A stretch of 64,000 nucleotides of DNA, from assembly GCA_973895155.1 (NCBI GenBank), contig OZ316894.1, positions 14,996,699 through 15,060,698 of the forward strand. Reading direction: 5' to 3'. Position numbers and translations under genes: made by a program. Shown piece after piece: positions 798 to 59,930 of this stretch. The notes under the pieces were generated by a model. That model was not told where the DNA came from, searched no databases, and saw nothing but the letters and a program-made list of their open reading frames with translations. Origin of the DNA: Marsupella aquatica. Taxonomy: Eukaryota; Plantae; Marchantiophyta. Position 1 is the stretch's first letter, and each line of letters starts with the position of its first letter.

Positions 798-897
798 GGG
801 AGCCAACCCTTTGTAGTGCACCAGTCCATCAGTCCACGCGCCAGCTTCGACCCCAGCTCTCTCGTTTGCTCTAAGTCGCCACTACTATCTCCTCTGA

Positions 898-36100: not shown

Positions 36101-38434
36101 CTTCGCGGCGTCCTTCCTTATCTCCTTTACGGTGGCGATTACTGGAACCGGGCGTTCCCCATAATCTCCGACTTCCTTCACCCTGAAATTCCTTTACCAC
36201 ATGGTACGCTACACTAGGCCATCCTACTAATCAGACGTCTAACTCCTTCCTAATCTTCTACGCAATTCCTGGTGCATGATTCTTTCCGCTAACTCCCGAA
36301 TGGAAATGACTAAATATCACTCCTGTGTGATCCTACCATTCAGCCTTAATATTACTAAATGCAAACTTTCATCTTCCCACCAGGTGATAGTTAACCAATG
36401 TATGCCATTCCTCCCTCTCAGGCTCAGAACCCAAGAATTAACATAACGATTCCTCAAATTCCTAATTCTTAATGTTCCCAAAGATCGGATAGGTGGCATC
36501 GGTCACACGAACCAGGATGGTTGGACAATTTTACAAATCATACGTCCCGAGCAACGTTAGAATAACTTCACTTGTCACTCAAAGTGTCTTTGGTGTCTTC
36601 GACTATCTCCAAAGCAACTTGACGAGCAACAGCTCCTCTCTGTGAGGCCTTTTCTGGTGGGAGGGCGGTTTCTTCTCTTAAGTTTGGCACCACAAATTTT
36701 TCCAATACTCTTAAGAGAGCTTCCGGGGCGCTTTGGATAGAGTACGGCATCACCTCGAAATGGAAGCTCTTCATCTTTTTAACTGGAGTGATGACGCATC
36801 TTCACAATTATAGTAGAACGTGAATTCCTCTCCCGTCTAGCTCCTTCTGGCATACACTGCCTGTACGTCAATTCAATCTTAAATTCGTTCCCCGGCAGCG
36901 GCGCCAAAAAGATGTCGTATAGTGCTAAGTATCAAAAGTGACTCTCCTCACCTAAAACCAGGGTTTCGATCCCTTTAAGAACAGATTTCAGAATGAATTG
37001 TATAACTTTTATCACTCCGAGTGATTTAGAGTCTTGAGCTCTATGTTGACTTCACTTCTCAATAAAAAAATCGAATAAACAAACAACAAAGTAACTGAAC
37101 TTCTGATTTATGAATTAGAGAAGAAATGAGTAAGGATTTAGAGACTACAAGCTGCTACTGCCACTCCTTCAGAAAGGATTTGGGCTCAGTATAGACATGA
37201 AATCTATCTCATAATTCATCCATCTCACTCTTCAAAACACAAAGGTTAATGATAATGGAATTCTCAATCTGATGAAGCAGAAGCTTTCTGATTGCAAATG
37301 AATGATATGATTTAAAATGCCGTCAACATGGTTTGACATCAGCGATACGCAATTCAGTCAAACTCTAAACCATATTCCAGAATCAAAGCAACAGTACTAA
37401 CTACTCTGAGAATCAGAATTTACTTCTCATTTATCATTAACTATTCTTGAATTGGCTAGCGAATCCCGACTCTGCAAGCAAGCCTAGCAGTGAATTCAAT
37501 ACGAGTTTCAGAAATCTGCAACTGAATTCAATCACCACAGGAATCTCTTGAATTCAATCTTAACTTCAATCAATATAGCTTTACTTCCATACAAAACACT
37601 CACAGCATGCCTTGTTACAATGGAAGGAGGAGAAAACTATTCAGAAGACTCAATTCTGAATACAGTATTAACTCTATTTCTCTCTACTTCAAATGAGCAT
37701 TCTACTCTGTCTTATAAGTGCTGGAATCCTAAAATGGAGGAGGTAAGAACAGTCGTGCCTTTCCAAGCTTAAAACTAAACAAGGGAGAAGCACAGCATAA
37801 GTACTTCAACAAGGGTGGTAGAATACTACTTTACTAGTAATCTACTTCAAAAACTAAGTGTTGAGCGGACGCTGCTAGAAGCGTCGGGAGAATCTGGACG
37901 CTGCTAGAAGCGTCTTAAGTAAAACCAACGGACGCTGCTCACACTGCTCACAGCGTCAATACTAGGGTGGACGCTGCTCACAGCGTCGTGTGTTGAAGCT
38001 GACGCTTTCCACAGCGTCGGTCGAAATCCTCATAGAGTCTTGGTGGCGGTCGGGCACTGCCAAAAGCGTCATGAGGAGGTTGGACGCTTCCGCAGCGTCT
38101 TGAGTAAAAGAAACGGGCGCTGGTCACAGCGTCGGGCAAAGTACACTAGGAATCGTCAGGAAAGCCGGAGATGTCAAATATTTCTATAAGTGTCCAGAAC
38201 AAGTAAATGTTGGCCGGAAGGTGTCTAAAGTGTAAGTAAATCTTGTGATATGCTAAAAATAAACAAGTTTCCAGAAAAAATTGCAGGGACACCCATACCA
38301 CATTGGCACTGTGTGCATGGGCATCTCATCCTCCTACTCCTACCTTGGGCGTCCCGGGCTTGTTCACGCATCCACAATTTAGAATCATGATGCCTAATCC
38401 TAAATGGGTTGTGAAGAGGCAACCTTGGAGCCAT
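21182..38434 (-). CDS. CACTA TnpD-like transposase (Transposase_21, DUF4218, DUF4216), disrupted by the gypsy insertion
   Basis: ATG 38434 ..MRCPCTQC, gypsy insert, then ..IDACPDGC..LRHFPLIPRL..DGVNPF..DYPG; DVMHIEKN, MKTHDYH, WMYPMERY; EPFVFPSQVEQAFF. GT-AG introns at 23091-22957 and 22054-21942 restore the frame. Confidence 0.93.
24756..26145 (-). repeat. 3' LTR (1390 bp)
   Basis: TGTCG...CCACA; no differences from 36913-38302 seen by eye. Confidence 0.97.
26146..26163 (-). other. Polypurine tract
   Basis: Minus strand AATTTAAGTGGAGGGCTA abuts the 3' LTR. Confidence 0.8.
26223..26699 (-). CDS. Extra ORF: second retropepsin-like (aspartic protease fold) protein
   Basis: FVIDPGSRINFLS...GRVKGVPIQIGEEFHDLDFYILD...MILSTTW aligns by eye with the element's own VPVDGGASVNLIT...GKLTKVETLIAGVPFLLDYVVIN...VLLGRPW. 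Confidence 0.65.
   Translation of the reverse strand: MRDIKRCCHLYVYKPLLLQHPAIVSFFLLRIDIYLLMWDIKATMDCWNSLPRAFQHSFEGKIKLGGHAIQHFVIDPGSRINFLSHRLCQQFVHQEVQPISAQISIDGRIINLWGRVKGVPIQIGEEFHDLDFYILDSDISQLPSMILSTTWIIKPEYY
26712..27143 (-). CDS. Extra ORF, 143 aa, unknown function
   Basis: ATG-initiated, intact, tightly packed between the 706-aa and protease-like ORFs on the element strand. Confidence 0.45.
   Translation of the reverse strand: MESILQQQQILPMTSHPRIRSLIRTYEPGKAVPPIDKDRRHKFSEFEIWCWVYMLRRAQAPFPPLVPEIPWPYPYYVWVCPGGFAIPIKYEKKLVKLREQLITKQCMLPASQGFKSLRCLAFLPIIPSYPDVIIQGVLSRTQI
27165..29285 (-). CDS. Extra 3' ORF (706 aa): N-terminal globular domain shared with the LTR-borne ORFs, plus an acidic disordered tail
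   Basis: MGLKKLLQLPW..LIAKVYSTP..NGWLAADC..INWTKVL..YLAPYLAHIY. Intact; no obvious transmembrane segment. Confidence 0.8.
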   Translation of the reverse strand: MAETELTTRPILADIPSNAVHRRQLKTALAKMGLKKLLQLPWKICEFSLIDQGVWDAEERIGVRSRPSVWTEALIAKVYSTPMEGEDLQRVDCEPRVYVESFFALGSFKRRNGWLAADCLDNSLQRLFRFLAPIFYPESQTRITLSFAATVICSLEQTQSINWTKVLHRVIHTQVKNFRSRLKTGKIRCTYLAPYLAHIYHKYDCLLVLEKDFYRNNQRASTGEANYMPEVREVRANSTVVELCAILDCEEPELVGEVRKLKETRASAEGSDDPILHQPREAQVAEDVPSAMPTGLEHSMSPRLSCSPCAAEPIYDVDQDNSASRMNVEDEVRVDEEGFSGEPLQHSTAEDEYDGFTSTPVLVPIEANSDALQALQEYDSSDSLSSSPNIGEIPLVQESEILSSEIVKLVKVDSEDAIVDIDEVGEPVTSPQSVARYPAWSTPGSLISIPLDITKELDEAIAAIGAPSFPPVKWVSPEDELIEGGSAGFPSRNQVSGNMGISVPILVPETPASTTSSAPVSLATNEDKNIREEFSVTYTRKSWKRLRHAISRQIFPEASSQDFEQGEAPIGTDELPLPVLLTDRTNQEVSLPSDNSKEELPVLVPMHPIADQPATVAREEFEPLEPEPSAPSSPVTLPIRPVKESVIPSAMPDVIFRWIGAPSDGEEDEDPRIIRVPPRLRHTVDLPPRNPIPNLASIHRWEKKHF
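29668..32640 (-). CDS. pol: pol: reverse transcriptase, RNase H, integrase
   Basis: FLDGYSGYNQ, MPFGLCNAP, FIDDF, FIDSS..EREALA..TDH, HHCC, GIDFIGP, SDRG, NGLTER, GPY. In frame with gag across one TGA. Confidence 0.97.
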   Translation of the reverse strand, partial: QLTSSSEVGPAADEPPNTEANRDLHHDMGVSATLEPFAPEVSKLGLQPANLTDGIVDPKACQKIEIEPGKFLNIGKHIEGELREQYISLLTQYKDVFAWSHSDLKGIHPHLGEHRIDLMEGAVPVRQRQYRLNPKYSILVKDELDKLTTAGFIYPVLSSEWVSPIVIVPKKPGPDGKTKIRVCQDFRKLNAATRKDHYPLPFIDLVLDSVALHELYSFLDGYSGYNQVSIRKEDRDKTTFTTDWGTYAFTMMPFGLCNAPGTFQRIMMIIFQEYLRHFMEIFIDDFCVYGSAAEHLVHLEKTFQKCREAQLCLHPEKCFIGMKEGILLGHVISQRGIEVDTEKVRVIMELQPPTDLKQLRAFLGHVGYYRRFIYKHANIALPLTQLLKSDVEYTWNEERQQAFQLLKDRLISAPILSPPDWTKKFHVFIDSSAFCIGANHSQKDVENRDHPIYYASRQMSAAEKNYSVTEREALAIVFACKKFRHYLLGYQVTFHTDHNSLKYLVNQVDLSGRVARWVLLLQEFDYEVHVRPGKHHENADFLSRLPGPENQHNLSDEFPDEHLWHIEGESSRYFNIVHMLLHGTFPEGFNAEERAVFAHKVGPYTIIRGTLFKQGPDQQLRRCLEDRELPQVIEALHSGETGGHYAVNTTVKKILDAGYWWPTMHRDTYNFIKTCDPCQRIGKPTASSKWPLTPILPLAPFEKWGIDFIGPISPAARKSRSKYIILATDYATKWVEAKATRKNDAITAAAFLFEHIITRFGCPLELVSDRGLHFLNSTIELITDLYLIKHRKTTPYNPRANGLTERANGIMGKILNKMVESHKTDWDVKLHSALWAYRTAEKITTLHTPFYLTYGLNSIIPIEFSLPTERILVPHRLSPSDSLSHRFSNIVKLEEVRLLALDHTVTIQNQRKLAYDKKLRVVQLDVGDLALVFDSRYMLFPGKLHTHWIGPYRVTHIWDNGSVSLTTLDGHPLNTRINGFRIKRYYESSI
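32641..35694 (-). CDS. gag: gag-protease (1017 aa), three CCHC knuckles
   Basis: Retrotrans_gag-like core; CTRCSQQGHYPNEC, CWNCGQPDHYSPQC, CGNCGKEGHLPVEC; protease VDGGAS..LLGRPW. Confidence 0.96.
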   Translation of the reverse strand: MSEGDPPNKRKPTKTSSNSDAAKLVVTPRTLLPEFQSPGAPAPGSVWKQVGSIQEASGSLERPTSTRPLFVNLRSGPKLIGSQKTKLRQQTVRSVNQIDSGVDSTTERALSHTEGRNLGLPENTVAESLAQDNSVDLSQLDNPEPLSEAGGSSSSETSSSSGLGSPNPFATRSALPFVTLLAPTTMARNNVRYDRFFGTSKEDAEVYLKEFEAAAASNGQSQDAEKANLFGGLMKKGAQKWYDRFPDKQDWGKLKAAFLAKYKEEGAAARAFARISHLHMKKHGSVRKYADKLLDLVDQYNPATSKSTIKDWFINGLPSRIARYVRREGGTTLEEVQEAAQKYVDSEISERKRVKKDLKKDKRKKKKTSRSKSDSETESSESSTSEEDESTNSSTSDSSSSSSDSESVAPKKKKSSVKGNNKVPNQKKMDRMMEELSGQLSKLNVNIAAVKPVRRLPAPMRMNVWCTRCSQQGHYPNECPTLRTPVNYVDGQEEAEEYEYDPTYTVQTAPPGQYFPPPPASRPTWGPPKPTFNKPTSRPPMGPPGGYPPRGMPRQKGACWNCGQPDHYSPQCPYPKQEVGYTPVCGNCGKEGHLPVECPNPAKPRLMVRFAQEPVKEASRPEAKIRMVYSEEMEQCSFIQHMDVNRVELKPDSLFHQPVSGVVPDVLVSHLVKPEVVGMPNDRVQNRDKVLTNIYATTRSKKKETKKHEHQKVAKAPKDEGRKPCKEGLDKEDDPAYDRYDPKYFLPDISLEVKDHLEELVKEQVQSPNPPVVVKAKEPLKNPGYDIVEDVKNHPAHITIGELLQDNPVYRRQLRSLLAGKRRKKKLPSVDVLRTEWEDKGPMEIEVQIQGCVIRRVPVDGGASVNLITQSAAFNLGFTKFEPTPKILRMADQSRVVPIGKLTKVETLIAGVPFLLDYVVINPEIPSSFPVLLGRPWLYKAQVQVNWQSQELSFGKPKVTVSWVPEPHFGETQTDDGYTSDFSTSSLVLQPLEFELEEVRYLEVYLSDAPIKPTRPS
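36889..36906 (-). other. Primer-binding site (tRNA-Asp type, as in Athila)
   Basis: Minus strand TGGCGCCGCTGCCGGGGA, 6 nt from the 5' LTR. Confidence 0.85.
36913..38302 (-). repeat. 5' LTR (1390 bp)
   Basis: Direct repeat of 24756-26145. Confidence 0.97.
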
Positions 38435-38759: not shown

Positions 38760-39329
38760 CTACCACATCAAATACGGATACCAATCCTGTTGTCGATGCC
38801 ACTCAGCCCTGAGGTACTCAGGCATGTACATTAAGTCATCAAGGTCTAAACCCTGCTCATGCCATGGTGGTCTTCGATCCGTGCCTACAAGCAATGGCAG
38901 CAGTGCCCTCCATGGTGCACATGTTGCTACCAAGTCCCTCCACTGGGTACTAATTAGTCTATATTTGCAGATATCTTGTGCGCCAGACACCACAAGAACC
39001 CTCGGCCAGACATGTGTAAGAACTATATCATCTGCCAAATCAGGCAACAAGGAACCACCTACAGCATCGTGCTTGTCTAACTCATCTGCTGAAAAGTAAA
39101 TGTCCTTTTCCGACTGTGCATCCTCATTCACCACAGCATTCACAACACATCCAAGGTCTGCAGGCATTATCTCGGATGGAGCTACACTCTGTCTGGTTAC
39201 CAATCCACACAAGTAAGCCCAAGCAGTAGCCATGCACGATGCAACCCGTAGGAGGACCCTACATAGGGCCTGACGGTCTGGAAGAGGCAGCATACCCACC
39301 AAAGTCTCCAGCCAAACAGAGCCCAGCAA
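38760..39329 (-). CDS. CACTA cargo: small F-box-like protein
   Basis: SLLPDLADDIVLTHVWPRV...ICKYRLISTQWRDLV matches the F-box pattern LP.d....I...l......r.Vck.Wr.l. No substrate-binding repeats follow. Confidence 0.65.
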   Translation of the reverse strand: MLGSVWLETLVGMLPLPDRQALCRVLLRVASCMATAWAYLCGLVTRQSVAPSEIMPADLGCVVNAVVNEDAQSEKDIYFSADELDKHDAVGGSLLPDLADDIVLTHVWPRVLVVSGAQDICKYRLISTQWRDLVATCAPWRALLPLLVGTDRRPPWHEQGLDLDDLMYMPEYLRAEWHRQQDWYPYLMW

Positions 39330-39469
39330 GTAGATTCACAGTCACACCCCACGCAGCAGGAAACAACAATCACTTCAACTGCGACCAACCATGACAAGAT
39401 GAGTTAGTTCAAGGATCACATTTATTACAAAATTGTGTTTTATACAAAAATATGAGGGACTCCTACTCC

Positions 39470-40318
39470 TCACTCTCTCCCACCTTTGCTAAGCATACAT
39501 CTTCGCTGAATCTTGGAGGGCCAGGCCTCAAAAATATCAAAGTCCCAAGCATTCTGTCGCTTCCCTCTAGCTGCTGATTCCAGAAGCCAATCAGGGGAAA
39601 GCACCCAAAGATTGTTGTTCATGATAAAATCACGCACTGTTGTCTTAAAGAATTTTCTGCATATTTTCATGTATGACAGACCTACAACATGAGTGGAGGT
39701 TTCTGTTAGACTCTCCTCCATTGTCCCACCTAGCTCAACAACTATAGACTTGTACAGTCTGCACTTAGTCTCCCCAATTCCTTCTTCTGCAAATACCACA
39801 TTGAACCCCTTCATAATGGTATTTCTCTCCTTGCCATGCTCATTCAATATAGCATCTGCACGCATAGGATGGTGTCCTATGTTGACAACAGGTCCATATT
39901 GGACAGAAGCAAAGTTGGGTTTCTCTGCCGCTGCTTCATAGGCTTCCTTTTCAGCCAAAGCCTCTGCAGTGGCCTCCTCACTCTCCCACAACTCATATTG
40001 CTCAGTACTCTGTACACACCTATGTTTAACAGAATCGGTCAGCCAAGAGACTTCAACTACTTTTAGACCTTGGTTGGTAATGGCAGAATCAATGAAGGAC
40101 CATGACCACTTGTTCATCACATCCAGCCATGTCCCCGCAACAACATGTGTAGTCTGTGGAGTGATGTCCTTGACTTCAGTCCCATGGAACTCTGAGAATC
40201 ATTTTTGTACGATTGGCCAACTCACTTGGGTGAACCCATAGTGGCCAGGAATCAAAATGGCTTTGATTCCAGCCAATAGAGGCGGGTGGTCAACCTTTGT
40301 ACGTTTTCTAGAGGCCAT
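39470..40318 (-). pseudogene. CACTA cargo: tandem BRCT protein with one premature stop
   Basis: ATG 40318 MASRKRTK..; TGA 40199-40201. TTHVV..KVVEVSWLTDSV and LGGTMEESLTETSTHVV..WVLSPDWLLES are two BRCT signatures. Confidence 0.8.
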
Positions 40319-40916
40319 GTACACACGGGCCACCTAATCACTGCAGACCGGAAGATAATGCGTTCACCTGATAATCGGAGGGCCCTTAAAATGCTGCGTT
40401 TATAACTTGGTCCAGTCCAGTCGTCTGGTGAGTCTCTGCTCCGATTCCAAACGGGAGAAATATTGGGACAAACGTACTAGACACCTGCAAGCATGCACCT
40501 CATAGTTTGAATATGTGCCTTCACAATATTGAAGGTGACAAGTGCAATTGTTTTGTGATGCCACATACAGATGTTGTAAATGGGCAGACATTCAATGAGA
40601 ATACAAAATGTTGGTACACTTTAAGGGAATTCTCGCAAATTAAATAGCCTTGTAACTTATATGCTCATAATGAGAAGTCCTGATTTAATTTAAGCAGTGT
40701 CATGTAAGTCGTGATCAAAATGATTGCAGAGTTAAAAAAGTTCCTAGAAGGCTTAAGGGCAGTTTTTGAAGGCATGTACCCAGGAACAAGTAATGAACTT
40801 AGGGTACTTGTTGCCTAAGCATCCTCTCCTACAGAGGTCCTTCTTCTCAAAATTGGAATGTCTGCAATCTCCAAGGTATCCACATCAGGTGCACTATGCA
40901 TGTATATTATTCAGGT

Positions 40917-41597
40917 TCAAAGCCAAGAAATGTGATCTCTCATGGGAGTGTGCAAAGTAGGATCTATGGCATGGCGATGACAATAGAAGATCCATCGATC
41001 AACACCATGTGCAGAGTGATCATAGATGTGTCTGTCACAAGCATAGCCTTCTGCTTGACGCTCCTTCAAACAATGAAAGTGCCACATGGTGGGACACCTA
41101 ACACAGTGGACTATGTCCACCCAGAAATCTTCATCGTGCTGACCACATGCCTTGCACTTATGAAGTGGGCAAGCTGTGGCAAGATCGGGCAAACATGAAA
41201 AACAAAAGAACCTCACACAATATCTGTCAGGGCATTTCCTAACAAGTGGTGGAGCATCAACAGAGCCCTCATAAGACCCCAACTTCCCACACTGTGCACA
41301 CTTAGCCTGCTTCTCCAAACAATCAGTGCACATCCAGCCTCCCTGGTGTGCTGACGGGAGGCCCACCCCTGGACAGTTGTTTTCTGCAGCAAGGTCAGAC
41401 TCCGGGTTGAGGTGGAAATGCCTCATGCAAGGGCCCTCACATATGGCTAAGCCACCACCATCGTCACAAATGGCACAACAATGAGGTGCCTTCTGGAAAA
41501 TCTGACTTGCGGAGAAGTTACTACCATCTGGCCCAACTACACCTGTGTTGCTCACCTCTGTCCCCCGCTTCTTGGCTCGGATTTTAGGGCGTGCCAT
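40917..41597 (-). CDS. CACTA cargo: EDM2-type composite PHD finger protein (226 aa, intact, intronless)
   Basis: CAICDDGG..CEGPCMRHFH..C..CGKLGS..CPLHKCKAC..CVRCPTMWHFHCL..IFYCHRHAIDPTLHTPMRDHI follows the EDM2 PHD region (CAICDNGG..CPLHKC..CRRCPKSYHRKCL..IYC..HEID..L.TP.RDH). Basic NLS-like N-terminus. Confidence 0.85.
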   Translation of the reverse strand: MARPKIRAKKRGTEVSNTGVVGPDGSNFSASQIFQKAPHCCAICDDGGGLAICEGPCMRHFHLNPESDLAAENNCPGVGLPSAHQGGWMCTDCLEKQAKCAQCGKLGSYEGSVDAPPLVRKCPDRYCVRFFCFSCLPDLATACPLHKCKACGQHDEDFWVDIVHCVRCPTMWHFHCLKERQAEGYACDRHIYDHSAHGVDRWIFYCHRHAIDPTLHTPMRDHISWL

Positions 41598-42266
41598 GCC
41601 TACGCATGAGACAGATAGTACAATTTAGCAGAGTGCACGGACAATACAATTTAGTGCAGTGTACAAAAAGTACAGTGTAGCATATAGACTAGAGTGGCAA
41701 TTGCTACTGCAATGAAATGTTCACACACATGTGCAGAGTAGACATACTTTTTGGTTTGTTGAGCCCACACTAAAAACTGATCCCCTCGTACAATAGCTCC
41801 ACCTACACCTCAATTTTGTGGCTATGATTCACCAAAGGAGATCTGCAACAAGATTTAATGCATTTGAATCACATATAATAGTCGTGACATGTAAAATAGG
41901 CATTTTTTGAACAGGATTGGTATCAAGCACTGTGATCAGGGTTGTAATTTATACATCCTAAATAGGCTATGATAGTGAATGAGACAAATAAGTTAGGCAG
42001 AAATCACTTTTTCCAGGTTATCACATGGCCCATTAATTCCAGTCTTTGAAAGGAGACTTTTAAGTGAGCTTGCTAGCCTCTTAAATTAGGATATTGTACT
42101 TAGTGCAGCCATAATAGGATAAGTTATGTACTGTTGACCCTAAACCTTGGACCCAAAATTGGTCATAATTCAAAATCTTAAGTAAATATCCTCTCTGTTC
42201 AAGTCAAAGTGTTAAGTTATAGGTCAATGGTCTCTGGTTTGTGCATGCGGTGTGACAAGTGGTCCT

Positions 42267-43513: not shown

Positions 43514-45645
43514 TGAGCTTGCAGCAAGAAGTGAAGGAGCATGGCCAAAAGCAGAAAAGACAGACAGGTTTTACAAGAAGAAACTAACAACCGCCAATCT
43601 GCTCAAATCCGTTGCATAGATCAAACCCTCCAAACTACACAGCCCTCCTTTGAAAACAATCCAATGTGCTTTGGCTGGTGGATGACAAGGACTGGGAGAA
43701 GAGGAAACGTCTACACAATCAATCCCAATGACGGGACACAGAGACCAGGCACAGAGAGGATTTGTGCTTAGACAAAAACCACAAATTGTAGCATGGGCGC
43801 CATAGCATTGGGCGGCAATGGGAAGAATTATATCAAATGAGTGGACAGAGAATGAACAGTCCGGTTATAGGCAAACAGCGACTGATGCCCTGATGCAATG
43901 AAACACGCATTGACATAGCGGAGGGACATAAAAACTACATAAGCCAACTTACTGACCTTTTAAGGCCCACAATTTCAAGGGGAGGGACAAAGACAGCAAT
44001 AACAGATGCAGAGACAAAGCTGTACTCTGTCAATTGAGTAGGCAAGTGGGTGGGTGAAGATCAACAACCAATGTAGCAGCGCAACCAGAGTAGCAACAAA
44101 GAAGCAGGTTGCCCTCAGTCTCCTATTTTTCAAGCAGCTCGTGCTCGCGGTCAATCTCCTATTCTGCAAGCAGCTCACGCTCGTCCCTCTTGTTCTGCAA
44201 GCAGGTCATTCTTGTCGGCGATGGTGCAAGCTGTCCTCCTAAACTCTGACACTCAAAATGAAAAGACCAAGCACCTCCAATCTGTTTGATCCCTTCCGCA
44301 AGCAGCCGAGCGGCAGATGATAATGTAGGGATCAAGAACCAAGTGCCAGGCGGACATTGCACAAAATGAGGACCGGGGGCAGAGACAAAATCTACCGAAA
44401 TCTACCGAAATCTACTTCTTGGGGTCCAGCCCACGGATGGACATCATGCAAGGTGGTCAAAAATGGTAAGTGCAATTGTTGGAGAGCTGTACTCGCGATT
44501 ACTAACGGTGCATCCACAAAACGCGTCATCAAGTTGTCAGTGCGGCCACAACAATTTTGACAGTCTCAGGATCACAGGTCCACAAACAAGTTGCAAATGA
44601 AGACACACAATGTCCAGGAGGGAAAGTCCGCAACACTAACCCTTTGTAAAGCCCCCGAGCTTACCTTCTAGCTGCCGACGCAAAGAGAAAACCTACTCGG
44701 ACACTGAAGCAACCCTAAACTCAAAGTCTCACCTTAGCGCAACAACTCCTGGATTGGATTCAGCTAGCTCAGGCTCAATGAAGCATGTCGCCTCGGGCTC
44801 TCCGGATCCTCCCAAGGCAGCAAACAAGTTAGGGTCCACGGTCCTTGTACCTTCACCGCACCGTTGTGTCCTTCCCAATGCCTCCTCTGTAGTTGCGTCT
44901 TGTCTGCAACTCTACAGCTCCCCGTGTTGCTCTGCCGCACTTAGTTATATTCCAACGCCCGATCGTGACCAAAAAGAGTTTTCTCCTGCTGGACAGCACT
45001 AGGCATTTGTTCAATCTCTTGATCACGCGTAAGCAGCTACAGGTATGAATCACTCAGTTGGCAGCTCAATACGCTTACAGCAAGAGGGCGCAATAGGTAG
45101 AAGCTCGCGCTACCTAGACCAGCACAAGGACAAAGCATTAACATTGAAACTGTACCATGGAGCTGGAGAAAACCACAGAGTAATTGAAGCCTAACAATAC
45201 CCTTCTTAGCTCCCGACTCCAAACTCTCGGCTCCCAGTTTGCAAGAACAAGCACTATGAAAATATGGATTCCCACATTGACTGTGTCCGCAGAACAGATG
45301 CAACCCGCATGCAACTTCACCAGCTCAACGGCAGCTTGACAACTGAAGGACCTCCCAATGAGCCTCACGGCCTCCCGATGCTCGTTATGGGTGCAGCAAA
45401 AGGGTCTATACCACAACTGTGACCGAGATTGTCACCCAAAACCTTGAAGAAACCCCAACCTCCGACTCCTCAAACTCCGACAAGCTCCTCACGAACGTTG
45501 CAGCAGCCACAACCTTCTTCGCCCTACCAGCCAAAAACTAAATGTCCCTAAAGGAGATCGAGCAGGAATGCAGGTCTATGAGTAGACTGCAAGCGCAAGG
45601 TTAGATCACTGCAACTGCCTGAACACTGCTCCTCGAGAGCATAAA

Positions 45646-48600
45646 TGTGGTGCGTCCCATGGCTCCCTAAACCCAAGAAACCCCCCAGCTCAAGCCGATT
45701 CCCGCAGGTTTCGTGCTTGGCGAGGCCGTTTCCGCGGCTTAGCGGCATGGGACGCTGCTAACCTTCTACTACTACTATTAACATTTTACACACATATACT
45801 GGACAGATCCTTCATCGGGTCATGAGATACGTAGCCGGCCTAATATAGGCCTTCCCCTGTCTTCCCCTGTCTTCCCCTCCGTCTTGTTAGGTATGTTTGG
45901 ATTCCGCCGCCGGAATGATCCCCAATAGGCTTGGTTAAGCCGCTAAGACCTCTCTTAGCTCGACACATCCAACTCTCACTCCCCTGCTTACTTTCCTTCC
46001 TTCTGTTGATGTGGGCACTCTTCACACAAGTTAATGCGACACACAAATAGCAAAATGACTCATTCTGACTGAGTCATACCATGCACTTGCCATACAAACA
46101 GTACATCTCATACACAAGTTCTGCGAACTAAGCCGTGAGGCCAACTCTATTCAGCTCTTAGGCATGAGGAAACATGAATATACACAAGGGTCACTGTATG
46201 ACTAACCGAGAGCTTCTCGTACTACTTGATCCCAGCCCGGCTGGTGCAAACTAAAAACTTGCTAAAGAAGAGGCCCTGAGCTCCCCGCTGCCCAGGTACT
46301 TATCCTGGTAGTGGATCCGCCATTCTTTGCATCGTAAGCCTAATCTACTTAACAGTAATCTACTTGCCCGAATCTACCTATGTACAGCAAGGCAGGAGCA
46401 CAAGTGTTGCTCCTACCAGTGGGACCGCAATCCCACTAAGCTAAGTGTCAGGGCCGCTCCTGGTTCTGATCCTAATCCTAAACGTGGAGATCCGCGCCCG
46501 CCCTGCCCACTCACGCCTCCTCCCTCCACGTCCGCCCTCCCTAAAAGGAACGGCGCCCTTGCACCGTCACGACACCGGTGGTGGATCCTTAATGGACGCC
46601 CCCAACGCTTCCTCCTCAGCCACTGCCGTAGGCTCATTCCCTGACAGATTACCTGCCCTTGACTGAGTCAACTCTCCATCGGCCTGACTGGGTCCACCAT
46701 CGGCGTCGGCATCGGCTCGAGAATCGGTTACAGCCTCAGCCTCGGCTACGGTCTCCCCGGCCTGCTCAAGAGGCGGATCTGGAATACTGGCCTCCTTACT
46801 GAGTAGTTCGGCTTGGGCCGCACCATCCCTACCTGTGATCATAGCGGGATCTATTGCCGTATTCATGTCGGAGGATGGTGCTGGTTCTACCTCTTTGGTC
46901 ACCACGGCTTGTGGAGTCGGATTACTCCTTGACCCTGAAGGTTTCCGCTTTTTCTTCTTTTCTGGTTCGGCAGCTGGTCCCTTCCCCTTCCCACTTACCT
47001 CCGGCACTGGTGCAGTTGGCGCGGCTTTTTCTTCGGCCAGTACCACTCCTGGTAACTTGGTTGCCCCAATTGGAGTTGGGCCTGATGAAGACAAGCACCT
47101 AAATACTGCGGCTTGTTTCTTCAGCCGCTCCGTTTGGTTGTCGGCCCGCCGCTGGAGGTTCTCCATCTTCCTCGTGATTTCCTCCAACTCCTCCTGGGTC
47201 TCATCCAGGTCCTTGCGTGCCTCCTCTAGTTCCTTCTGGGCTTCCTCCCGTTCTTGTTTCAAGGTAGTCCTCTCCTCCTGGGTTGCTTTTAGCTCCTTGT
47301 CGAGCTCTGCAATGATGACAGACTCCATCTGGTTCATCTTGGCGTAAGTCTGTTCGAGCATCTCGTCCTTCTCCCTTAGGTCGGCCTTGAAGCTGGCCGT
47401 CAGGGACGCAAGCTCCTGCTGCAGCGCCATAATCCCTTGATAGGATTTCCCTAACTCGGCCTCCTTCTGCTCAAGGGCTCCGCGGATTTTCTTGAGCTCC
47501 CCTTTCAACGCCCATTCCTTTCTTTGGGTCTCCGCCATGGCCCGGCTGTTGGCTGTTATGTGGGCCTCCTCTGTATTCTTCAGCTCTTGCTTCCACTTCT
47601 CCCTCTCTTTGATCGTGTCGGCCAACTCTTCCTGCGTCTGAGTCAGTTTATCCTTGATATTCTGATTATCAGCCTGCGCGGTGTCCAACTGCCCCTGCAT
47701 GATGTTCAGCTCATGTCGTTTAATCCGCAGTTCATCTTGGGCTTTCTTGGCCGTCCTTAGATCTTCAATCTCGGCTTCCATCCTCCTAAGCCGCCGAATG
47801 ACCTCGTCCGTCTTGCTTCTCTCTAAAGCCACCGCTTCTTCTAATTGGTGCTTCTCCAACTGCTCCCTATGGAAAAAGGGTCCTACCTCCAACTCCTCTC
47901 CAAAGATGCCGAGCGCAAGTTCCCCACACATCTCACCATACTCCATGGCTCTATTCTTAGCGTAGGTGGAGTAAGTAGAAGTGATCGGCATCGCCCATCG
48001 CGGCCTCTGCTCCCAAGCCGTCCTGCGGATCTCTTCAATCGTGGCTAGAGGTTTGCTTCCTTTTTTGGCTAGCCGCCTGATGTCCTCCGGCCAATCTCCT
48101 CCTGGTAAATCCTTTTCCTTAGCCAGGGCGGCCTCCTCCTCCTGCTTGATTCGCTCCTGAAATTCCTGCACCGTCTGTTTTATGCCGTCGAAGCTCGGGG
48201 GAGCAACATCTGGTGGGGGAGACTCAGGGCTACTCTGCTGGTTGGGGTCCCCTCGCACTACCCTTGGAAGTGTGGGGACAAACCGGCCACAGGTCCTTAC
48301 TCTTGGAACGTGATGGTCCGACCCATAGCCGGAATTATCATGGCTGCAGTCCTCCACTGCCTCCTCTACCTCTTGGACGTCCGGCTTCTCCCTCTCCTCT
48401 TCGTCGGTAGGAGCTTCAGGCAATTCTGCCTCAGATTCGGAGCTTGAGGTTCCCACGTACATTCGAACACCTGGCTTGGATTCCGGCCTGATTCTCTCCT
48501 TGTCTCCAGCAAAGGGGTTTTCTCTTGTGAGCCGGTGTAGGCCTACCTCTATAGTAGTGTCCTGCATTGTTGCCATTGTTGTTGTTGTTGCCGATGCCGA

Positions 48601-50314
48601 TTTCTTTTCTTTCTCCAGTAGTTTCAGCAGACTCTGCATGCCTGGTTGCTGTATCGGCAAGTCTTCCTTCCTGGGCCTAAACACCTGCTCGATCGTAGGA
48701 CTAACAGGTGGTTGAGGCTTCTCAGCCAACGGCCTCGGCGTTGGAGCTTCCTCGGGTGCCCTTACCTGCAGGGGAAGTACCGGGGCAAAAGTCTGACCTC
48801 TGGCATACCGGCACAACAGCGGCATGTGATAGCCCAGCCGCGACACGCTCCCCATGCCGATTACCTACTGCTCCTCCTTTAAGATCTTCTTCAATTGGTT
48901 GAGGAGGTACCCGTTGTAGTCCCGGCTTGGGTCTGGCCTTTCTGCCAGATAGACCTGTGCCTTGTCGATCTCTGCCCTCGGCAAGTTACAATGCATGGTC
49001 ACCCGCAAGAAGTCGATCATCTCTCCTATGTGCGGGTTGGTGCAGGTGTTCCGGAAGAAGCCATTCCTCGTTGATGGCCCGGGGAACGACCGGAACTCCT
49101 TGTCAGGCAAGGTCTTCCTGGTATCAACTTTGGTCTTATTGCCTATCGGCAGGCCAAACACTTCGGCAATTACCTTGGGAGTAAGATAGAAATCCTTCCC
49201 ATATATCCTCGTGCAATTGGTCTCGGGTTCCCATGACCCCACGAATTCTAATAGGTCTGACTCCGGTACCTCCGGCTTCAGCCATGGTAATCTTACAAAG
49301 GCCTCCAAGCCGGATCCGGCCATGAAGCCTTGGTATCTCTTGGTCTGCATGGCCGTAAAGCATGCATCCTCCTCCCGTGCAAAATGTAGTTGCACCTCCA
49401 CCGGTAGGGTTGCCGCCCAGCCTTTCCAGGTGTCATCCCTGGTTGGAATGGCCTTGATGGGATCGACCTCCTCCTCTTCGGCTTCTCCCTGCCTCCTGCT
49501 CTGCTGCTCGGCTGGCTTCTTTGGTGCCGCCGACCTCGTTCTTTTTGCCGGGGTGGCTTCATCGTTGACGGCTCCCTTCCTCTTCATCTCTGCTGCCGTG
49601 GAGGTTTCTCCTAGCACCGTTGCCTGGGTCCACCTTTCCGTGCTACCCTTTAATTCCCAGTGTATGTCGTTGCAGTTCTTGATGGCCTCTCGGATGCCGA
49701 CGACGCTGTCTTTGCAAAACAGAAGATCGTCGAGTTGATTGGAAGTAGGCGTCCACAGGAACTCGTCCTTGATGAGTTCGCCTCCTAAGAAAGCCGTCTT
49801 CTGCAGCTCCCACAATTGAGCGAGCTCCTGCCATTCTCGAGCTGCCCTTTCTGACTCCTCGTCCTCGTAAGTCTTGATGTACTCAGTTGCCTGTTCGAAC
49901 AGGCATCCCCAGAAATGTGCCGCTTGATTGACGTTGCTCATACCCTCCTTAGGTCGATCATCGGTATCTACTCTCTCCCCGAGTGCTTGCCTAAGCAGCT
50001 GACAGTAGTTGGCCTCCCGTAGTCGTCTGCCTAGTTCGTGCTCGCAAATGAGCCACCATCTCCTGCAAGCGCTCCTTACCCCTCTCCTCTGCCGGTCCTT
50101 CTTCCCGTTGATCCTTCCTAGCCGCCGACGCTTAACGCGCCCTAACCCTAATCGGGTTTTCACCCTCAGCCTTACCTCCGGCCTCGGCCCGGGTTCCATG
50201 GTTGCCCCTAATTGTTTATATTTTCCTTGTTTTGTCCCTATACTAAGGTGTTCCTAGGGTGCCTTCCTGCTTTACCCACTTAACCGGCCGAGTGATTCCT
50301 GTCTAGGCATCACA
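45646..50314 (-). mobile_element. 4669-bp TG...CA element (giant solo-LTR-like) containing a long ORF
   Basis: TGTGGTGC...GCATCACA (7/8 inverted match). TSD ATAAA at 45641-45645 and 50315-50319. No gag/pol. Confidence 0.88.
46567..50199 (-). CDS. Element-encoded ~1210-codon protein (track ORFs 444 aa + 762 aa in one frame): shared globular domain + long coiled coil
   Basis: A single TAG (48865-48867) separates the in-frame ORFs and falls inside the conserved domain. Homologous to 898-3534 (EF..TR..FGLP..NGF..TC..P.I.E..F..PR.EI..AQV). Confidence 0.8.
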
Positions 50315-51785
50315 ATAAACAAGCACATAACGTGCGGGAAGTTCACTCCGCAATGGTTGCAAAAAGTGGGCAACACTGAAAGGAAAACCCTACGTAAAAC
50401 CCCGAACACTCCACCCCTCACGTTCTAAGTTCAATGACAATGGCGAAAACTCCAAAGAGACTCCCAAAGTGAAGTTTAGTGCCTGAAACCGAATTAGGGG
50501 AAGCCACTCAGCCTTACCGTTTGAGTGAGCCGTTGAGTGTCACCCAAAGTGGGACAAAGCTACAAAGTGTTACTGCATGGCCAACTTAGGCAATGAATGG
50601 TCATATTTGCACATACATGGTCGGTAGTGACATTTTATTGCACGCCGTAATCAGGATTAAGGTTGCCCAACATTATATCCGGTCCTAAAATGCAATATTC
50701 CCGGTGCAAGAATGTGACCTAGCTCTAATGTATGAAAAAGGACCGGTACAAATCTACCTTTGTGCATCTTGACCTTTTATAGATGGATTTAGTAATGGCC
50801 AAGAATATCTTGACCATCCCTCCATGGTCCAACCTCCATGAACCCCACTTCATTAAACCCAAAACCTTTTTGGTCACAAATAAGGACATTTAATGAGTTA
50901 TGCCCCTTGCTATCACCCTCTTTATAGATTTATTTTTTTGTTTGAAATTTTACATTTATTCCGCGTGAACCCCACGGATGGGGGAACCAGTAGGCCAAAT
51001 GGCATCATAAAACCTCAACACCAAAGGAGGCAAATAACAAAGAGTTACTCAACCAGGGTCATCAGATCAGGCAAAGATTGCGAAGCCGTTCTTCTAGTGG
51101 TCCATGCAACAAGTAACAACTAGGGAATAAGCACTAGAAGGCGCAGTAGGTCAGCATAGTGTAAGTGTAAAGTGTCAAAGCATTGTCTAGTACTAAATTA
51201 ATCCACCTGATTAGTAAGAAGGGGGTGTATACTGTAATGGGAAAAAGAAAAAAAAACCAAGGCATGAGCAAGGGCCACCAAGAGTGGTGCAGCTATAAGC
51301 TATAGGGATTGAACACAATGCGGGGGGGCAGTGGCACTATGTATGAGGAAATCACGGGAGTATCGGTGTCAAATGAGTCGACAAAACTCCCAGATAGCCA
51401 CACAGTATAAATCAATCTCACAGAAGGCTGCCATCAATGGAGGAAACAATTTGACACGACCCACATCTGAGAGTGTGAATTCGCTCGATCTCCAGCAGTT
51501 CTTTGGCACTCGATAGACGTCGGTGCTTTCGGCTCAAAGATGAAGGAGAATTACCCCTCCTCAACATAGAGTGAACATTACCCATGATGTGCTAGACTAT
51601 TCACCCTTCACAAAGTAGCAAGGTTACTTCTCATAGTCTTTTAGTGAACCATAAAACTCTCATAGTCTTTTCTAGTCTTCAACAAAACCGGTGCAATGGG
51701 TGCGAGTCGTTTTAAGTATGGAAAAAGGACTTAGTGGGCATAGTCCTATAAGGTATGGTCTAAATTGCCCCGGTTTCTACTAGTG

Positions 51786-55572: not shown

Positions 55573-55930
55573 ATCTTCCCCTTGACTCTGGTCTAGGGGA
55601 GAGTAATACTGCCAATGTATATGATCCCTCAGCGGGAAGTTTTGGACAAAAACCAAACCGGTTTCCCTCTCTAACTAGAGCAAACCAGAACTAAGCCGTA
55701 GCCTAATACATAGGAATGAGGAAGAGCATATATCAGTAATTACAATGACTGTTAAGAAAACTCTACTTGTGATGCAATTGCAAAACCTGCAATACGTCAC
55801 GGTGTCTAGAGAAACTCTCCAAAGGAATCACTTTGGTAAATGCGTCAACCGGGTTGAGTTTACCATCAATCTTGACTAGCTCAAACAAATTATCAGACAC
55901 AGCCTGCCTGATAAAATGGTACTTGATGTC

Positions 55931-56696
55931 ATCTCAAGGCTTTGCCCATCTCAAGGCTTTGCTTGAGAAAATCTTAGTTGTGGCTAAAAACTCCGCAATT
56001 GAGATTACCACACTCAGCAAGGAGGTGACGGAGCTAAAGAATGAGAATGTCAAGCAAAAGAGGTTGATTAGTGATCTTCGATCTCAAACTCAGGAGAATG
56101 GTAAGCAACTCTCATTGCTTGCATCGTGTTTTGGAGACATGGAGAAGAGTATGTGCCCAGAGAAATCAGTGATACATGAGGCTGTAGGGGAGATTGAGGA
56201 GAAGCTCAAAACCTTTGCACAGGCTGCAAAACAATCACATATGGAATTTGTCCAAGCCAAGGAGGAGGAGAGGAGAGCACTAGAAGAAGAACACAAGAAC
56301 CAGCATGCAAGAGTCAGCAACTGCAAAATATCAGGCCTTGTTGAGGAGGAGAAGGAAGACACCAAGAAGGTAGCAATTTCATTCTTCCAATCTCAGATGA
56401 AAGTGCATGACCCTATCATTTTGCAAGCATATAGGATTGGGCAAAAGAAGGGGGACCTTCCACGTCCAATCTTGGTGAAGTTTGCAGCTGAATCCGAGAA
56501 AGCTAGAGTGATGGCTAACAGGAGCATGCTTAAAGGGCTAAGGATTTGGTTGGATGATGATCTGACTCCCACACAAGTCCAAGCAAGGAAAATTGAGCTT
56601 GAGAAGGTGAGGGTAGCCAAAGACCAAGGATTGGTAGCCTACTTGCGCAATGGACAAGCTATTGTTACCAATAAGAAGAGAGTTGTTTCTAAATGA
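55931..56696 (+). CDS. LINE ORF1 (partial): coiled coil + RRM-like domain
   Basis: NCKISGLVEE..AYRIGQK..PRPILVKF..IWLDDDLT. Confidence 0.85.
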
Positions 56697-56708
56697 TGGA
56701 TTGGGACC

Positions 56709-59700
56709 TTGAGAGTCATGGCATGGAATGTTTCAGGACTTTCCATAGAAACAGCAATTGGAGGGGAACCTTTGTTTGAGAATTTTGACATCTTGCTTTT
56801 CACGGAGACTTGGGAATATGAGGGAAATGCTCTACCTAGCATTAAAGGCTTTACTTGCATACAATCCATCTTCAATGAGAAGAAGACCACACGGGGAAGA
56901 GGGTTTGGAGGCATTGCTGTCTACACCAAGAATCAACTTCAACACATCACCTCTATTGAACATGAAGATCCCAGCAAGCAGTTCATGGTGGTGAGACTTC
57001 ATACCAGAGGTACTCCATCATTTCTGATTGTCACCTACTTTGCTCCCCTTAATATGAATGTCTATAAGATGGGAATTGCTGATGCACATTATCCATTTCA
57101 TAGGTTAATCCAAGTCATTCATGATATATCACCACTAGGGGAGACATGGATAGTGGGGGACTTTAATGCCAGGGTATCTAATGAACAATTTACTGAAAGT
57201 GAGGACTTAGGAACTTTACCTTGGTCATCATGTAGTGAAGAGATACCTTGGGTGAGAGAGGCTCTTGACACCAGAACAAAGGACATGACACGTCACTTTT
57301 TGCATTTGGGAGCTTCTTGTAATCTAAGAATATTGAATGGGCTTGAGAGATTTCCCCAATCATCTGGTTACACTTTTAGATCTAAACAAGGATGTAGTAC
57401 CATTGATTACCTTCTTGCCTCACCTACCTCTGCCACTAGAGTGGTTGACTTTCAAATACTTGATCAACAACCAGAGTCTTCACACTTGCCTTTGTTGTTC
57501 CATCTTGACCTGACCACAATCCCAAACAAAGTGCATAGAAAGCCAGTACCCAAACCTCTGTTTCTAGACCCTGATAGAGAAGTCATCTTCAAAGCCAACT
57601 TTGAACATCTTCTCCATACCCTGGATGATCAGATTGAGCTCTCAGAAGTCATAGCACAAGCAGCAGCCTCTACTTTCTCCACCAAACCCCCTAGAAAGCA
57701 AAACATGAAGGCTTGGTTTGACGAGGATTGTGCTAGAGCAAGGATGCAAGCAAGATCACATTCAGGGGAAAAGAGACTTTTGGCATTCACTATGTACAAG
57801 AACTTCATCAAACACAAGAAGAGGTGCTTCTTGAAGAGTCATCAACAATCACTATGTGAGGAGTTCATCAAACATCCAAAACGTTTTTGGGAGAGAATGC
57901 AATCAGGCAAGACTACTCCCCCCTTGGATCACCAGGACCTGGTAACCTATGTCACATCCTTGTATTTCTTTCCAGATGCTAGTGGCATGCCTTTGCCCCT
58001 TGGGGACACCATTCAGTTTACAGAGAGGGAGGTGAAGGTGCATCTTTCCCACATGCAACATGGGAAAGCTAAAGATCTGTTGGGCCTGAACTTGGAGCTT
58101 CTTTTGTGGGGAGGACCCTCTTTACTAACAAACTTGGTGCATGAGCTGAATCAAGCAATGGCTTTAGGTTTACCTAAAGCTTGGATGACCAGAAGAGTGG
58201 TGCCTATCTTCAAGGCAGGCAACAAGGACGATGTGCACAACTACAGAACCATCATGGTAGGCAATACTTTTGCTAAAGTTTTGGGAGGACTACTTGAAGC
58301 CAGATTAAGCTCTTGGTTGGAGAGTGAGATGAAAAGGGCACCTTCACAAGCAGGTTTTAGGAGAGAATTCAGCACTATGGATCACATTCTCTGCTTGAGG
58401 GTGTTGTGTGAAAAGGCCAAATCTCCACATAAACCATTATTTTGCTTGTTTGTGGACTTCTCCAAGGCCTTTGACAAAGTTTCCCGATCCAAGCTTTGGG
58501 ATAGGATGGTGGAGTTGGAAGTGCCTGAAGAGCTCAGGTTGGCTGTTTCTAAATTGTACCAAGAAGTGCGCATCAAACTTTCAAAGGAAACCTCTGAAGA
58601 AATCTGGAGCACTCTTGGGGTGATCCAAGGTTGTCCTCTCTCACCAACTCTCTTTGGCATCTTCATTGATCAGCTACACAACATTTTGGAGGAGCATGGT
58701 GGAGTTGGCACTCAATTGGGTAGGTTTGTCCTCCAACTTCTTATATTTGCAGATGATGTGGTCCTACTTGCTCATGCTCAAGAAGCTTTGCAAAGACATC
58801 TCAATGCCTTGGAGGAGTTTTGTCAAGCAACAGGGATGGTAGTCAACCTCAAGAAGACCAAGTGTTTGGGCATTGGCACACGACAAAATCCAGAGCTCTA
58901 CTTCCAAGGGAATCTGGTGGAATTTGTGAGGACCTACAAATACCTTGGGATGGAGTTCTCTCAAAACTTGAGTTGGGCCTCATGTGTAAAATCTAGGGCT
59001 GCCAATGGGTACAGAGCTTTTTATGCATTCATGAACAAATGCAAAAGAGCTGGTCTACACACTTGGAGGTTAAGAAAACATCTCTTTGGAGCTTTGGTGA
59101 AACCAGTCATTCTTTATGGAGCACCAATTTGGGGAGCAGGTGTGTCTAAATCTGGGTGGCAACAGATTGAGGGGCTGCAAAAGCTATTTCTTGAGATGGA
59201 GCTTGGGATCAAGTCACAAACCCCATATGCACTTACACTTGCAGAGGCAGGCTTGTTTCCTTTGGAGGTGGAGGCACTCTTCCACACACTCAAATACATC
59301 ATGCGTGTAAGAGAGTTGGAGGAAAACAGATTTCCTTTTCATGCCTTGCGCTCATCTTCAGCTAAAGGGTGGTATGCAGATGTGTGCAGGTGGGCCCATG
59401 CTTGGGATTTTCCTGAACATGAATGGCCAACACACCCAACCAAGCTAAGAGCAAAACTTGAGCAAAAGGCTTTGCACAAACTTTGGCATGAACCTAGCCC
59501 ACGGCAGCAATACTACATGAGAGATGTGAACCCCATGAAGAAATATCGAGAACAAGAATACTTATCTAGCACTATCTCAGTACAACTTAGACAACTTATT
59601 GCTCAGTATAGACTAAGCTCACACCACCTTGAAGTAGAACAAGGGAGATGGAAGGATATTGACAGGAAAAAGAGGGTTTGTCAACTATGTGATAGCTCTA

Positions 59701-59930
59701 GTATAGAGAATGAATATCATGTATTCATTGCTTGCAAGTTTTATGAGGGGGTTAGGATGGCATCTCAAATCTTGGTGAAAGATTTGTATGCATTGTTTGG
59801 TCTGCCCCCTCAACAACTTGGAAGATATATCTTTGCGGTGGATAGGGAAAGGAGAATAGGTTTGGAAAATCTTTCAGGGCTCTCTAGGTCCATAGGGCTC
59901 TCTAGGTCCATAGTTTCTTTGAGGACATAG
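56709..59930 (+). CDS. LINE ORF2: AP endonuclease + reverse transcriptase + C-terminal CCHC (1073 aa)
   Basis: AWNVSG, FTETW, VGDFNAR, IDY, SSHLP; NYRTI, QAGFR, FVDFSKAFD, QGCPLSP, FADD, YKYLG; RLSSHHLEVEQGRW..CQLC..HVFIAC. Confidence 0.96.
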   Translation: MRVMAWNVSGLSIETAIGGEPLFENFDILLFTETWEYEGNALPSIKGFTCIQSIFNEKKTTRGRGFGGIAVYTKNQLQHITSIEHEDPSKQFMVVRLHTRGTPSFLIVTYFAPLNMNVYKMGIADAHYPFHRLIQVIHDISPLGETWIVGDFNARVSNEQFTESEDLGTLPWSSCSEEIPWVREALDTRTKDMTRHFLHLGASCNLRILNGLERFPQSSGYTFRSKQGCSTIDYLLASPTSATRVVDFQILDQQPESSHLPLLFHLDLTTIPNKVHRKPVPKPLFLDPDREVIFKANFEHLLHTLDDQIELSEVIAQAAASTFSTKPPRKQNMKAWFDEDCARARMQARSHSGEKRLLAFTMYKNFIKHKKRCFLKSHQQSLCEEFIKHPKRFWERMQSGKTTPPLDHQDLVTYVTSLYFFPDASGMPLPLGDTIQFTEREVKVHLSHMQHGKAKDLLGLNLELLLWGGPSLLTNLVHELNQAMALGLPKAWMTRRVVPIFKAGNKDDVHNYRTIMVGNTFAKVLGGLLEARLSSWLESEMKRAPSQAGFRREFSTMDHILCLRVLCEKAKSPHKPLFCLFVDFSKAFDKVSRSKLWDRMVELEVPEELRLAVSKLYQEVRIKLSKETSEEIWSTLGVIQGCPLSPTLFGIFIDQLHNILEEHGGVGTQLGRFVLQLLIFADDVVLLAHAQEALQRHLNALEEFCQATGMVVNLKKTKCLGIGTRQNPELYFQGNLVEFVRTYKYLGMEFSQNLSWASCVKSRAANGYRAFYAFMNKCKRAGLHTWRLRKHLFGALVKPVILYGAPIWGAGVSKSGWQQIEGLQKLFLEMELGIKSQTPYALTLAEAGLFPLEVEALFHTLKYIMRVRELEENRFPFHALRSSSAKGWYADVCRWAHAWDFPEHEWPTHPTKLRAKLEQKALHKLWHEPSPRQQYYMRDVNPMKKYREQEYLSSTISVQLRQLIAQYRLSSHHLEVEQGRWKDIDRKKRVCQLCDSSSIENEYHVFIACKFYEGVRMASQILVKDLYALFGLPPQQLGRYIFAVDRERRIGLENLSGLSRSIGLSRSIVSLRT

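Follow-up and report, generated by a model that had tools for sequence, protein, structure and literature searches.

The unit at positions 45646-50314 (4669 bp, minus strand) of a 64,000-nucleotide stretch of the genome of the liverwort Marsupella aquatica (Eukaryota; Plantae; Marchantiophyta; assembly GCA_973895155.1, contig OZ316894.1, positions 14,996,699 to 15,060,698 of the forward strand; hereinafter, the window) is most likely a solo long terminal repeat (LTR) of a high-copy Athila/Tat-like Ty3/gypsy retrotransposon family. It appears quite likely that the LTRs of this family carry a maintained accessory gene, represented in the unit by a long open reading frame (ORF), and very likely that the parent element was a non-chromovirus Ty3/gypsy retrotransposon. 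A second unit in the window (431-4433, plus strand) encodes a homologous protein, and a third homologue is located inside a complete gypsy element (24756-38302, minus strand). Both repeats show a steep rise in depth at their ends, code for homologous proteins in one and the same orientation and have tail motifs in common; the location of the gene within the repeat is thus a family trait rather than an accident of a single copy.

The unit is flanked by exact copies of the target site duplication (TSD) ATAAA (45641-45645 and 50315-50319, plus strand), and its ends, TGTGGTGC and GCATCACA, with the 5' terminal TG at 50314 and the 3' terminal CA at 45646, are complementary at 7 of 8 positions. Because the window contains 56 pairs of TSDs with TGT..ACA ends spaced by 3.5-5.5 kb, among which the 45646-50314 pair ranks best (7/8), this pattern is weak on its own, and evidence was therefore sought outside the window. 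The unit, or a part of it, is present in 13 of the 15 listed public runs, four of which (X1, X2, X3 and X6) were compared with it in detail. The contig depth in X1, summed in a way that does not equal copy number, is 184k-689k in the 23 bins mainly within the unit versus 3k-9k in the six flank bins, and the same step at the unit ends is found in X2, X3 and X6. An empty-site joint from 45640 to 50315, with five letters common to both sides and a single ATAAA, is present in X1 and X2, and mixed flanks are joined at the exact ends of the unit in three contigs at 45646 and four contigs at 50314. Given the depth steps at both ends and the empty site with one ATAAA, the unit is a real insertion, so that the TSD and the termini proposed in the initial annotation are not only exact but have support from outside the window. 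The flank is probably a repeat as well, considering that the depth of the flank contigs is approximately 1500-2200, compared with 75-108 for the contig that spans the junction of the sister unit. Some joints of low depth correspond to rare internal deletions among the copies of the unit; furthermore, joints in X2 that lead from 46500, 48251 and 48818 back to 45646 suggest self-insertion of family copies, with their own LTR as the target.

The identity of the unit as an LTR and its orientation follow from the sequence beyond its CA end. The loose end before 45643 reads TGGCGCTAGATGGAGGGG (minus strand) in 19 contigs of X2 and in one contig each of X3 and X6; it lies a few T's past the CA end, with a spacing like that of the primer site in the complete gypsy element, and presumably fits the 3' end of a plant tRNA-Asn. 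A primer-site-like sequence beyond the 45646 end places the LTR on the minus strand and the ORF in the sense orientation. The 5-bp TSD, the long LTR, the extra ORF and a primer site for a tRNA other than tRNA-Met, which are used to delineate the Athila/Tat group in PMC6317226, are all found here. There are no internal direct repeats within the unit that might be short LTRs. The principal alternative, namely that the unit is not an LTR but rather a mobile element of another kind, non-autonomous or otherwise, that has short inverted ends and one gene, would fit the 7/8 complementarity of the ends, the fact that no parent was seen and the lack of a purine tract among the 24 of the 1496 loose-end rows that were listed, but appears very improbable given the primer-site-like sequence at the expected spacing in three of the four runs, the 5-bp TSD with TG..CA ends and the presence of a homologue within a gypsy element. 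The same observations, nevertheless, have to be counted against the solo LTR assignment itself: no full-length parent element was seen and, with no polypurine tract before the 50314 end among the rows listed, the orientation rests on the primer-like site and the tail and keeps a small doubt. A scan of metagenomes for an LTR end followed by a primer site yielded 46 loci, none of which was similar to either unit, and scans of viral and prokaryotic contigs yielded no usable locus, with two loci of one scan left uncompared with the units.

The ORF (46567-50199, minus strand) accounts for 78% of the unit and, as initially reported, consists of a single frame with one TAG that starts 115 bp from the unit end; it comprises 1210 codons from Met1 or 1124 codons from Met87 (49941), whereas each of the other five frames contains 25-61 stops. 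The TAG (48865-48867, minus strand; codon 445) lies inside the conserved core domain of the predicted protein. At this codon, 98.7% of the depth in X1, 97.5% in X2, 97.9% in X3 and 100% in X6 differs from the window, and the homology with the sister protein continues across the TAG position. Since nearly all other copies differ in all four runs, the stop is a private mutation, and this particular copy is a pseudogene, which answers the question posed in the initial annotation, whether the TAG is private or fixed. Programmed readthrough would be in line with the in-frame TAG that follows CAG in both units but is hardly conceivable here, considering the depth at this codon, the non-homologous positions of the TAGs in the two units and the disruption of a conserved domain; a readthrough gene with a stop fixed across copies is accordingly refuted for this unit.

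The pattern of variation among the copies bears on whether the gene is maintained. Eight of the ten listed indels within the unit map to the tail and the remaining two to the last 25 codons, with none elsewhere in the ORF (12 of the 22 rows were listed), and the amino acid sequences of the ORFs are conserved between the two units without DNA similarity in the ORFs. Against maintenance, synonymous changes account for 11 of the 25 substitutions in the ORF, compared with 34% expected (p 0.20), which is not a significant excess; this set includes the ORF sites, except for the stop, among 40 of the 498 rows that were listed, and many of the classed substitutions are sites where the 45646-50314 copy differs from most other copies. 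As for the start of the protein, Met87 corresponds in the alignment to the initial Met in two relatives and to the sister unit's ATG at 898, which is suggestive of a conserved start at Met87 rather than at Met1. The candidate promoter of the ORF is a TATAAA at position +95 of the LTR (50215-50220, minus strand). Both starts are possible because this motif is too near Met1 for a usual start site, yet the context of Met1 is good.

The sister unit (431-4433, plus strand; TSD AGAGA; ORF 898-3534, interrupted by stops at 1000 and 3364) probably represents a second family's solo LTR. Its protein aligns with that of 45646-50314, in agreement with the initial annotation: 26% identity over 185 amino acids in blastp (E 6e-16), with none of 1000 shuffles reaching the score (z 28.8). 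In a search with a profile from which both other window copies had been removed, the 431-4433 protein was retrieved with an independent E-value (iE) of 2e-38 and the ORF inside the gypsy element with an iE of 2e-5, the latter match spanning positions 14-173 of the 176 profile positions; no other six-frame match was found in the window, and the rows of the two copies were present while the alignment was built. A match between the N-terminal domains of the two units was unlisted at E 10 with the base profile and reached a non-significant E 0.06 with the extended profile. The ends of 431-4433 coincide with a sharp depth step, and two joints in X2 skip the unit in related copies of the flank, with inexact joint ends. 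A primer site was not among the 24 of the 874 loose-end rows that were listed. Given the TSD, the ends, the depth step and the tail shared with 45646-50314, the sister unit is likely an LTR.

The initial annotation found no DNA similarity between the two units, which is incorrect for the tails. The non-coding tails are of near equal length, 921 bp in 45646-50314 (45646-46566, minus strand) and 899 bp in 431-4433, and have 19 9-mers in common, compared with a null mean of 2.9 and a maximum of 14 in 1785 draws; the matching patches follow roughly the same order. One match is 29 nt at 90% and includes the hairpin motif TTCCG-GCGG-CGGAA (45888-45915, minus strand; 4250-4278 in the sister unit), which is found twice in the window versus 0.02 expected. 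The outer pair of the hairpin is A-T in 45646-50314 and G-C in 431-4433, a hint, from two sequences, of a compensatory change. The folding of the 121-nt regions around this hairpin is no stronger than that of shuffled sequences (z -0.7 and -0.8), and no Rfam family is detected in the window. In X2 and X3, a variant of a small stem located 5' of the shared hairpin is present in a loose end at 4222-4242, with both arms changed and pairing kept. The tail of 45646-50314 further contains TAGATTAGG-type motifs, GTAAG, hairpins and a TGTA cluster (approximately 46093-46184) that is a candidate 3'-end processing region; in both units, TGTA clusters precede the 3' end by 385-540 bp. TATAAA is located near the front of both units (+95 and, in 431-4433, +360) and is absent from both tails. 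On the antisense strand (45845-45880, plus strand), TAATATAGG with a CTTCCCCTGT repeat after it, close to the LTR's 3' end, might be an antisense promoter.

The third homologue, which was missed in the initial annotation, belongs to a complete non-chromovirus Ty3/gypsy element (24756-38302, minus strand) with 1390-bp LTRs, the TSD TTGGC, gag (32641-35697) and pol (29668-32640). The LTRs are 100% identical, so this element inserted very recently; gag and pol are in one frame with a single stop codon between them, and the primer site (36906-36889) is of the tRNA-Asp type, identical to that of FIDEL at 17 of 18 positions. The extra ORF (27165-29357, minus strand; z 9.5) is located between the integrase and the 3' LTR in the sense orientation and encodes a protein with a homologous core domain and no coiled coil. 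The purine tract AATTTAAGTGGAGGGC is present in two identical copies, one just 3' of the integrase stop, upstream of this ORF (29630-29645, minus strand), and the other adjoining the 3' LTR (26148-26163, minus strand); these are the only matches in the window, compared with 0.07 expected. LTR-type repeats (family D4) are also found 3' of the upstream copy of the tract. The region between the internal ORF and the 3' LTR (26223-27164, minus strand) contains two open frames of 150 and 162 codons from stop to stop, the second of which resembles an aspartic protease by eye. The inference in the initial annotation that the ORF-in-LTR architecture is an old trait conserved across families thus holds in part: two repeats with shared tails point to a family trait, whereas its age and ancestry are not supported given that the third homologue lies outside LTRs.

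Two scenarios for the origin of this layout have to be considered: (i) the boundary of the LTR moved across the gene, in either direction, or (ii) the gene was captured into the LTR independently in two families. The 5' boundary of an LTR is set by the plus-strand priming site. If plus-strand priming shifted to a purine tract upstream of the extra gene and this tract gained a TG end, the gene and its promoter would enter the LTR and be copied to both ends of the element, and LTR-LTR recombination would then yield gene-bearing solo LTRs such as 45646-50314 and 431-4433. The reverse route, in which a new downstream tract would expel the gene from the LTR, fits equally well. Overall, the chances that the boundary moved by purine tract switching appear about even. 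An extra purine tract has been reported in Athila4 and Calypso (PMC2829016). Against this scenario, the tail yielded neither an old purine tract nor a second TATA box and, according to the same source, upstream tracts are mostly outcompeted and lack an integrase attachment site (PMC2829016), so that a tract switch needs a new TG end. Independent captures with a convergent layout are compatible with the protein identity of just 26%, with the lack of common DNA in the LTR fronts and with the poorly resolved 10-row tree of homologues (1 of 7 inner branches starred; 16 of the 26 alignment members excluded as short, redundant or poorly aligned), in which the two proteins are not sisters (support 82/85); the duplicated tract would also ease such a move. 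Nevertheless, this scenario seems unlikely, considering the shared tail motifs in similar order, the near equal tails and the common domain order with a coiled coil that is absent from the internal homologue. The two LTRs probably have a common ancestor, and a single capture, two captures and a later expulsion are all compatible with the data.

The mode of expression is a related question. Because TATAAA precedes the ORF and TGTA clusters follow it, a self-contained transcription unit is predicted in each LTR, with the ORF in the U3 or the R region. With a promoter at the front and 3'-end signals in the tail, each LTR, solo LTRs included, would make an mRNA for the protein, a reading to which we give roughly equal odds for and against. 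A different and rather doubtful possibility is that the ORF lies inside a very long R region, such that the genomic RNA and a short mRNA both originate at the front promoter, and gag-pol is expressed by splicing. The short mRNA would then end at the poly(A) site of the 5' LTR itself and no purine tract switch would be needed; the positions of TATAAA at both fronts and of the TGTA clusters before the 3' ends are consistent with this, as are the splice donors predicted in the LTR of the Athila-group element Diaspora (PMC1142308). Conversely, a strong-stop DNA of approximately 3.6-4.5 kb would be required, the post-integrase homologue with its duplicated purine tract would be left unexplained, and the absence of TATAAA from the tails is a weak argument because the LTR of the complete element lacks this motif as well.

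From Met87 onwards, the protein consists of an N-terminal conserved domain (residues 87-205; 49585-49941, minus strand), a basic linker, a core domain (residues ~270-467; 48799-49392, minus strand), a low-complexity stretch, a predicted coiled coil (residues ~784-1039; 47083-47850, minus strand) and a KKKKRK patch at residue 1081 (46942-46959, minus strand), a candidate nuclear localization signal. The coiled coil, predicted from a rough heptad score and weak matches to coiled-coil Pfam families below the cut-off, was noted for both units in the initial annotation, and the two proteins share the domain order. Among the 20 hits at E 0.001 in a search of 1.84 billion representative proteins, 15 match the core domain and four the N-terminal domain alone (E 5e-10 to 3e-4); the remaining spurious one (P0012) is a bacterial repeat protein and was excluded. 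An organism name is attached to four of the hits, all of which come from the leafy liverwort Calypogeia fissa as unnamed products, and one C. fissa gene model joins a gypsy reverse transcriptase, RNase H and integrase to the C-terminal part of a homologue in one predicted protein.

No Pfam family, including for the core domain, was detected above the cut-off in the ORF protein, and Transposase_32, Athila ORF1, PMD, Transposase_28 and DUF1985 were unlisted for all 26 alignment members at E-values up to 10. A PF20167 search of 2 virus records and 14 controls gave no match; word-index protein searches retrieved none of 370 candidates (665-2118 aa) and none of 3984 (1379-3935 aa); and a sequence search of the PDB returned a single hit at E 0.78. 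The pLDDT (predicted local distance difference test) score was 48.7 for the alignment-based structure model and 31.6 for the single-sequence fold. A comparison of the former with the PDB and BFVD produced no match at E 0.001, and the best Z in a wide search was 4.2, which is uninformative at this pLDDT. For the core domain, helices and one beta-hairpin are predicted with low confidence; the order of helix, beta-hairpin and helix is, we assume, like that in the Transposase_32/PMD group, a lead that no sequence or structure match accompanies.

There is no transmembrane helix in the ORF protein given that the highest 19-residue hydropathy is only 0.91; across the three homologues, the highest values are 0.91-1.13, and no hydrophobic segment is present. 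Basic patches and a coiled coil, together with the lack of a transmembrane segment, suggest a nuclear accessory protein. By analogy with the nuclear GENE23 of Grande, with TRP28, for which DNA binding is predicted, and with the PMD and VANC proteins, a nuclear oligomeric regulator that binds DNA or chromatin is a tentative preference. The lack of a Pfam family and the low confidence of the alignment-based model count against this functional assignment. An envelope-like protein, or one that acts on RNA or particles (in packaging or nuclear import) rather than on chromatin, would fit the env-like position of the homologue and the conserved hairpin near the 3' end as a possible RNA target; it seems less likely still, and its envelope variant is at odds with the absence of a hydrophobic segment from all three homologues. 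Under the chromatin reading, the protein would oligomerize via the coiled coil, bind DNA or chromatin and might thereby keep the family transcribed, again a tentative proposal by analogy.

Plant LTR retrotransposons commonly carry extra ORFs, the function of which is still open (PMC7264820). The env-like ORFs at the 3' side of Athila, Calypso and Bagy2 are sense extra genes (PMC7264820, PMC2829016, PMC11728184), as here, and the internal homologue in the window is similarly located between the integrase and the 3' LTR with a second purine tract upstream; a predicted nuclear signal was reported for the 3' ORF of sunflower Athila (PMC11728184, PMC7264820, PMC2829016). In contrast to these ORFs, the gene described here is inside the LTR and persists in solo LTRs, and its protein has no transmembrane segment and no match to PF20167 or PF03078. 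The antisense ORFs of Retand, Grande and PvRetro13 share a conserved domain and SMC-like (coiled-coil) domains and have their own promoter, and GENE23 of Grande has a nuclear location (PMC11963269, PMC7264820); however, these ORFs are internal and carry Transposase_28, whereas the ORF here is apparently sense, is located within the LTR and gives no PF04195 match. Ogre and Retrosat2/RIRE3 combine very long LTRs (3-6.5 kb) with extra ORFs, as in the present case (PMC6431247, PMC3485330, PMC6317226), but the ORFs are described as internal and the LTRs are not described as coding in the portions available. The PMD proteins (MAIL1/MAIN, gypsy PMD-A) and the VANC anti-silencing proteins are also transposon-linked and nuclear (PMC5418596, bioRxiv 2024.09.27.615353); no sequence or structure match to the ORF protein was obtained.

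Extra ORFs are placed in the internal region in PMC7264820 and PMC6317226, and a coding LTR is undescribed in the available portions of PMC3485330, PMC6431247, PMC11728184, PMC1142308, PMC2844528, PMC13468544 and PMC12885004. A literature search for an ORF inside a plant LTR found no description, although an earlier mention is possible. Accessory ORFs that overlap the LTR are known in retroviruses, namely sag of mouse mammary tumor virus and nef of human immunodeficiency virus in U3, but these are much shorter and encode unrelated proteins. An extra gene in a plant LTR retrotransposon is therefore of a known kind, and its position inside the LTR is a new layout.

Several other elements are present in the window. 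At its right edge (61438-64000, plus strand), a further element, which has its TG start within the remnant of a copia-like pol, tandem repeats of 64 and 47 bp and a CT-rich leader, contains an ORF from 62481 that encodes a coiled coil and continues beyond the window edge. The element is possibly a third LTR with a gene inside or, alternatively, contains an extra ORF on the 5' side; the ORF has no significant match to the core domain. Two copies of a long interspersed nuclear element, 99% identical and in opposite orientation, occupy 11684-14544 (5'-truncated, within a gypsy pol remnant) and 55773-60051 (with ORF1 and a full ORF2). CACTA-like transposase frames identified by eye (17851-24774, minus strand) are split at 24756 by the gypsy insertion, and the region beside the gypsy element (38760-41624, minus strand), with a weak F-box-like match, two BRCT and NSD-type PHD matches, is possibly DNA transposon cargo.

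The window provides a natural comparison, with the domain inside the LTRs of two families and outside those of a third with a duplicated purine tract, and the presence of both states in one window makes the LTR expansion route testable. A further outcome is a protein family that no Pfam model covers and whose members are listed in liverwort annotations as ordinary unnamed genes. The most far-reaching interpretation, which at present we consider improbable, is that liverwort Ty3/gypsy families moved a gene for a nuclear anti-silencing or trans-activating protein of more than 1100 residues, together with a promoter and 3' end of its own, into the LTR, with solo LTRs as trans-acting cassettes and tract switching toggling the position of the gene. 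With a gene filling 78% of the LTR, solo LTRs may be functional genes and not debris. If so, the formation of solo LTRs, which normally defuses an element, would leave very many self-contained gene cassettes to sustain the activity of the family in trans.

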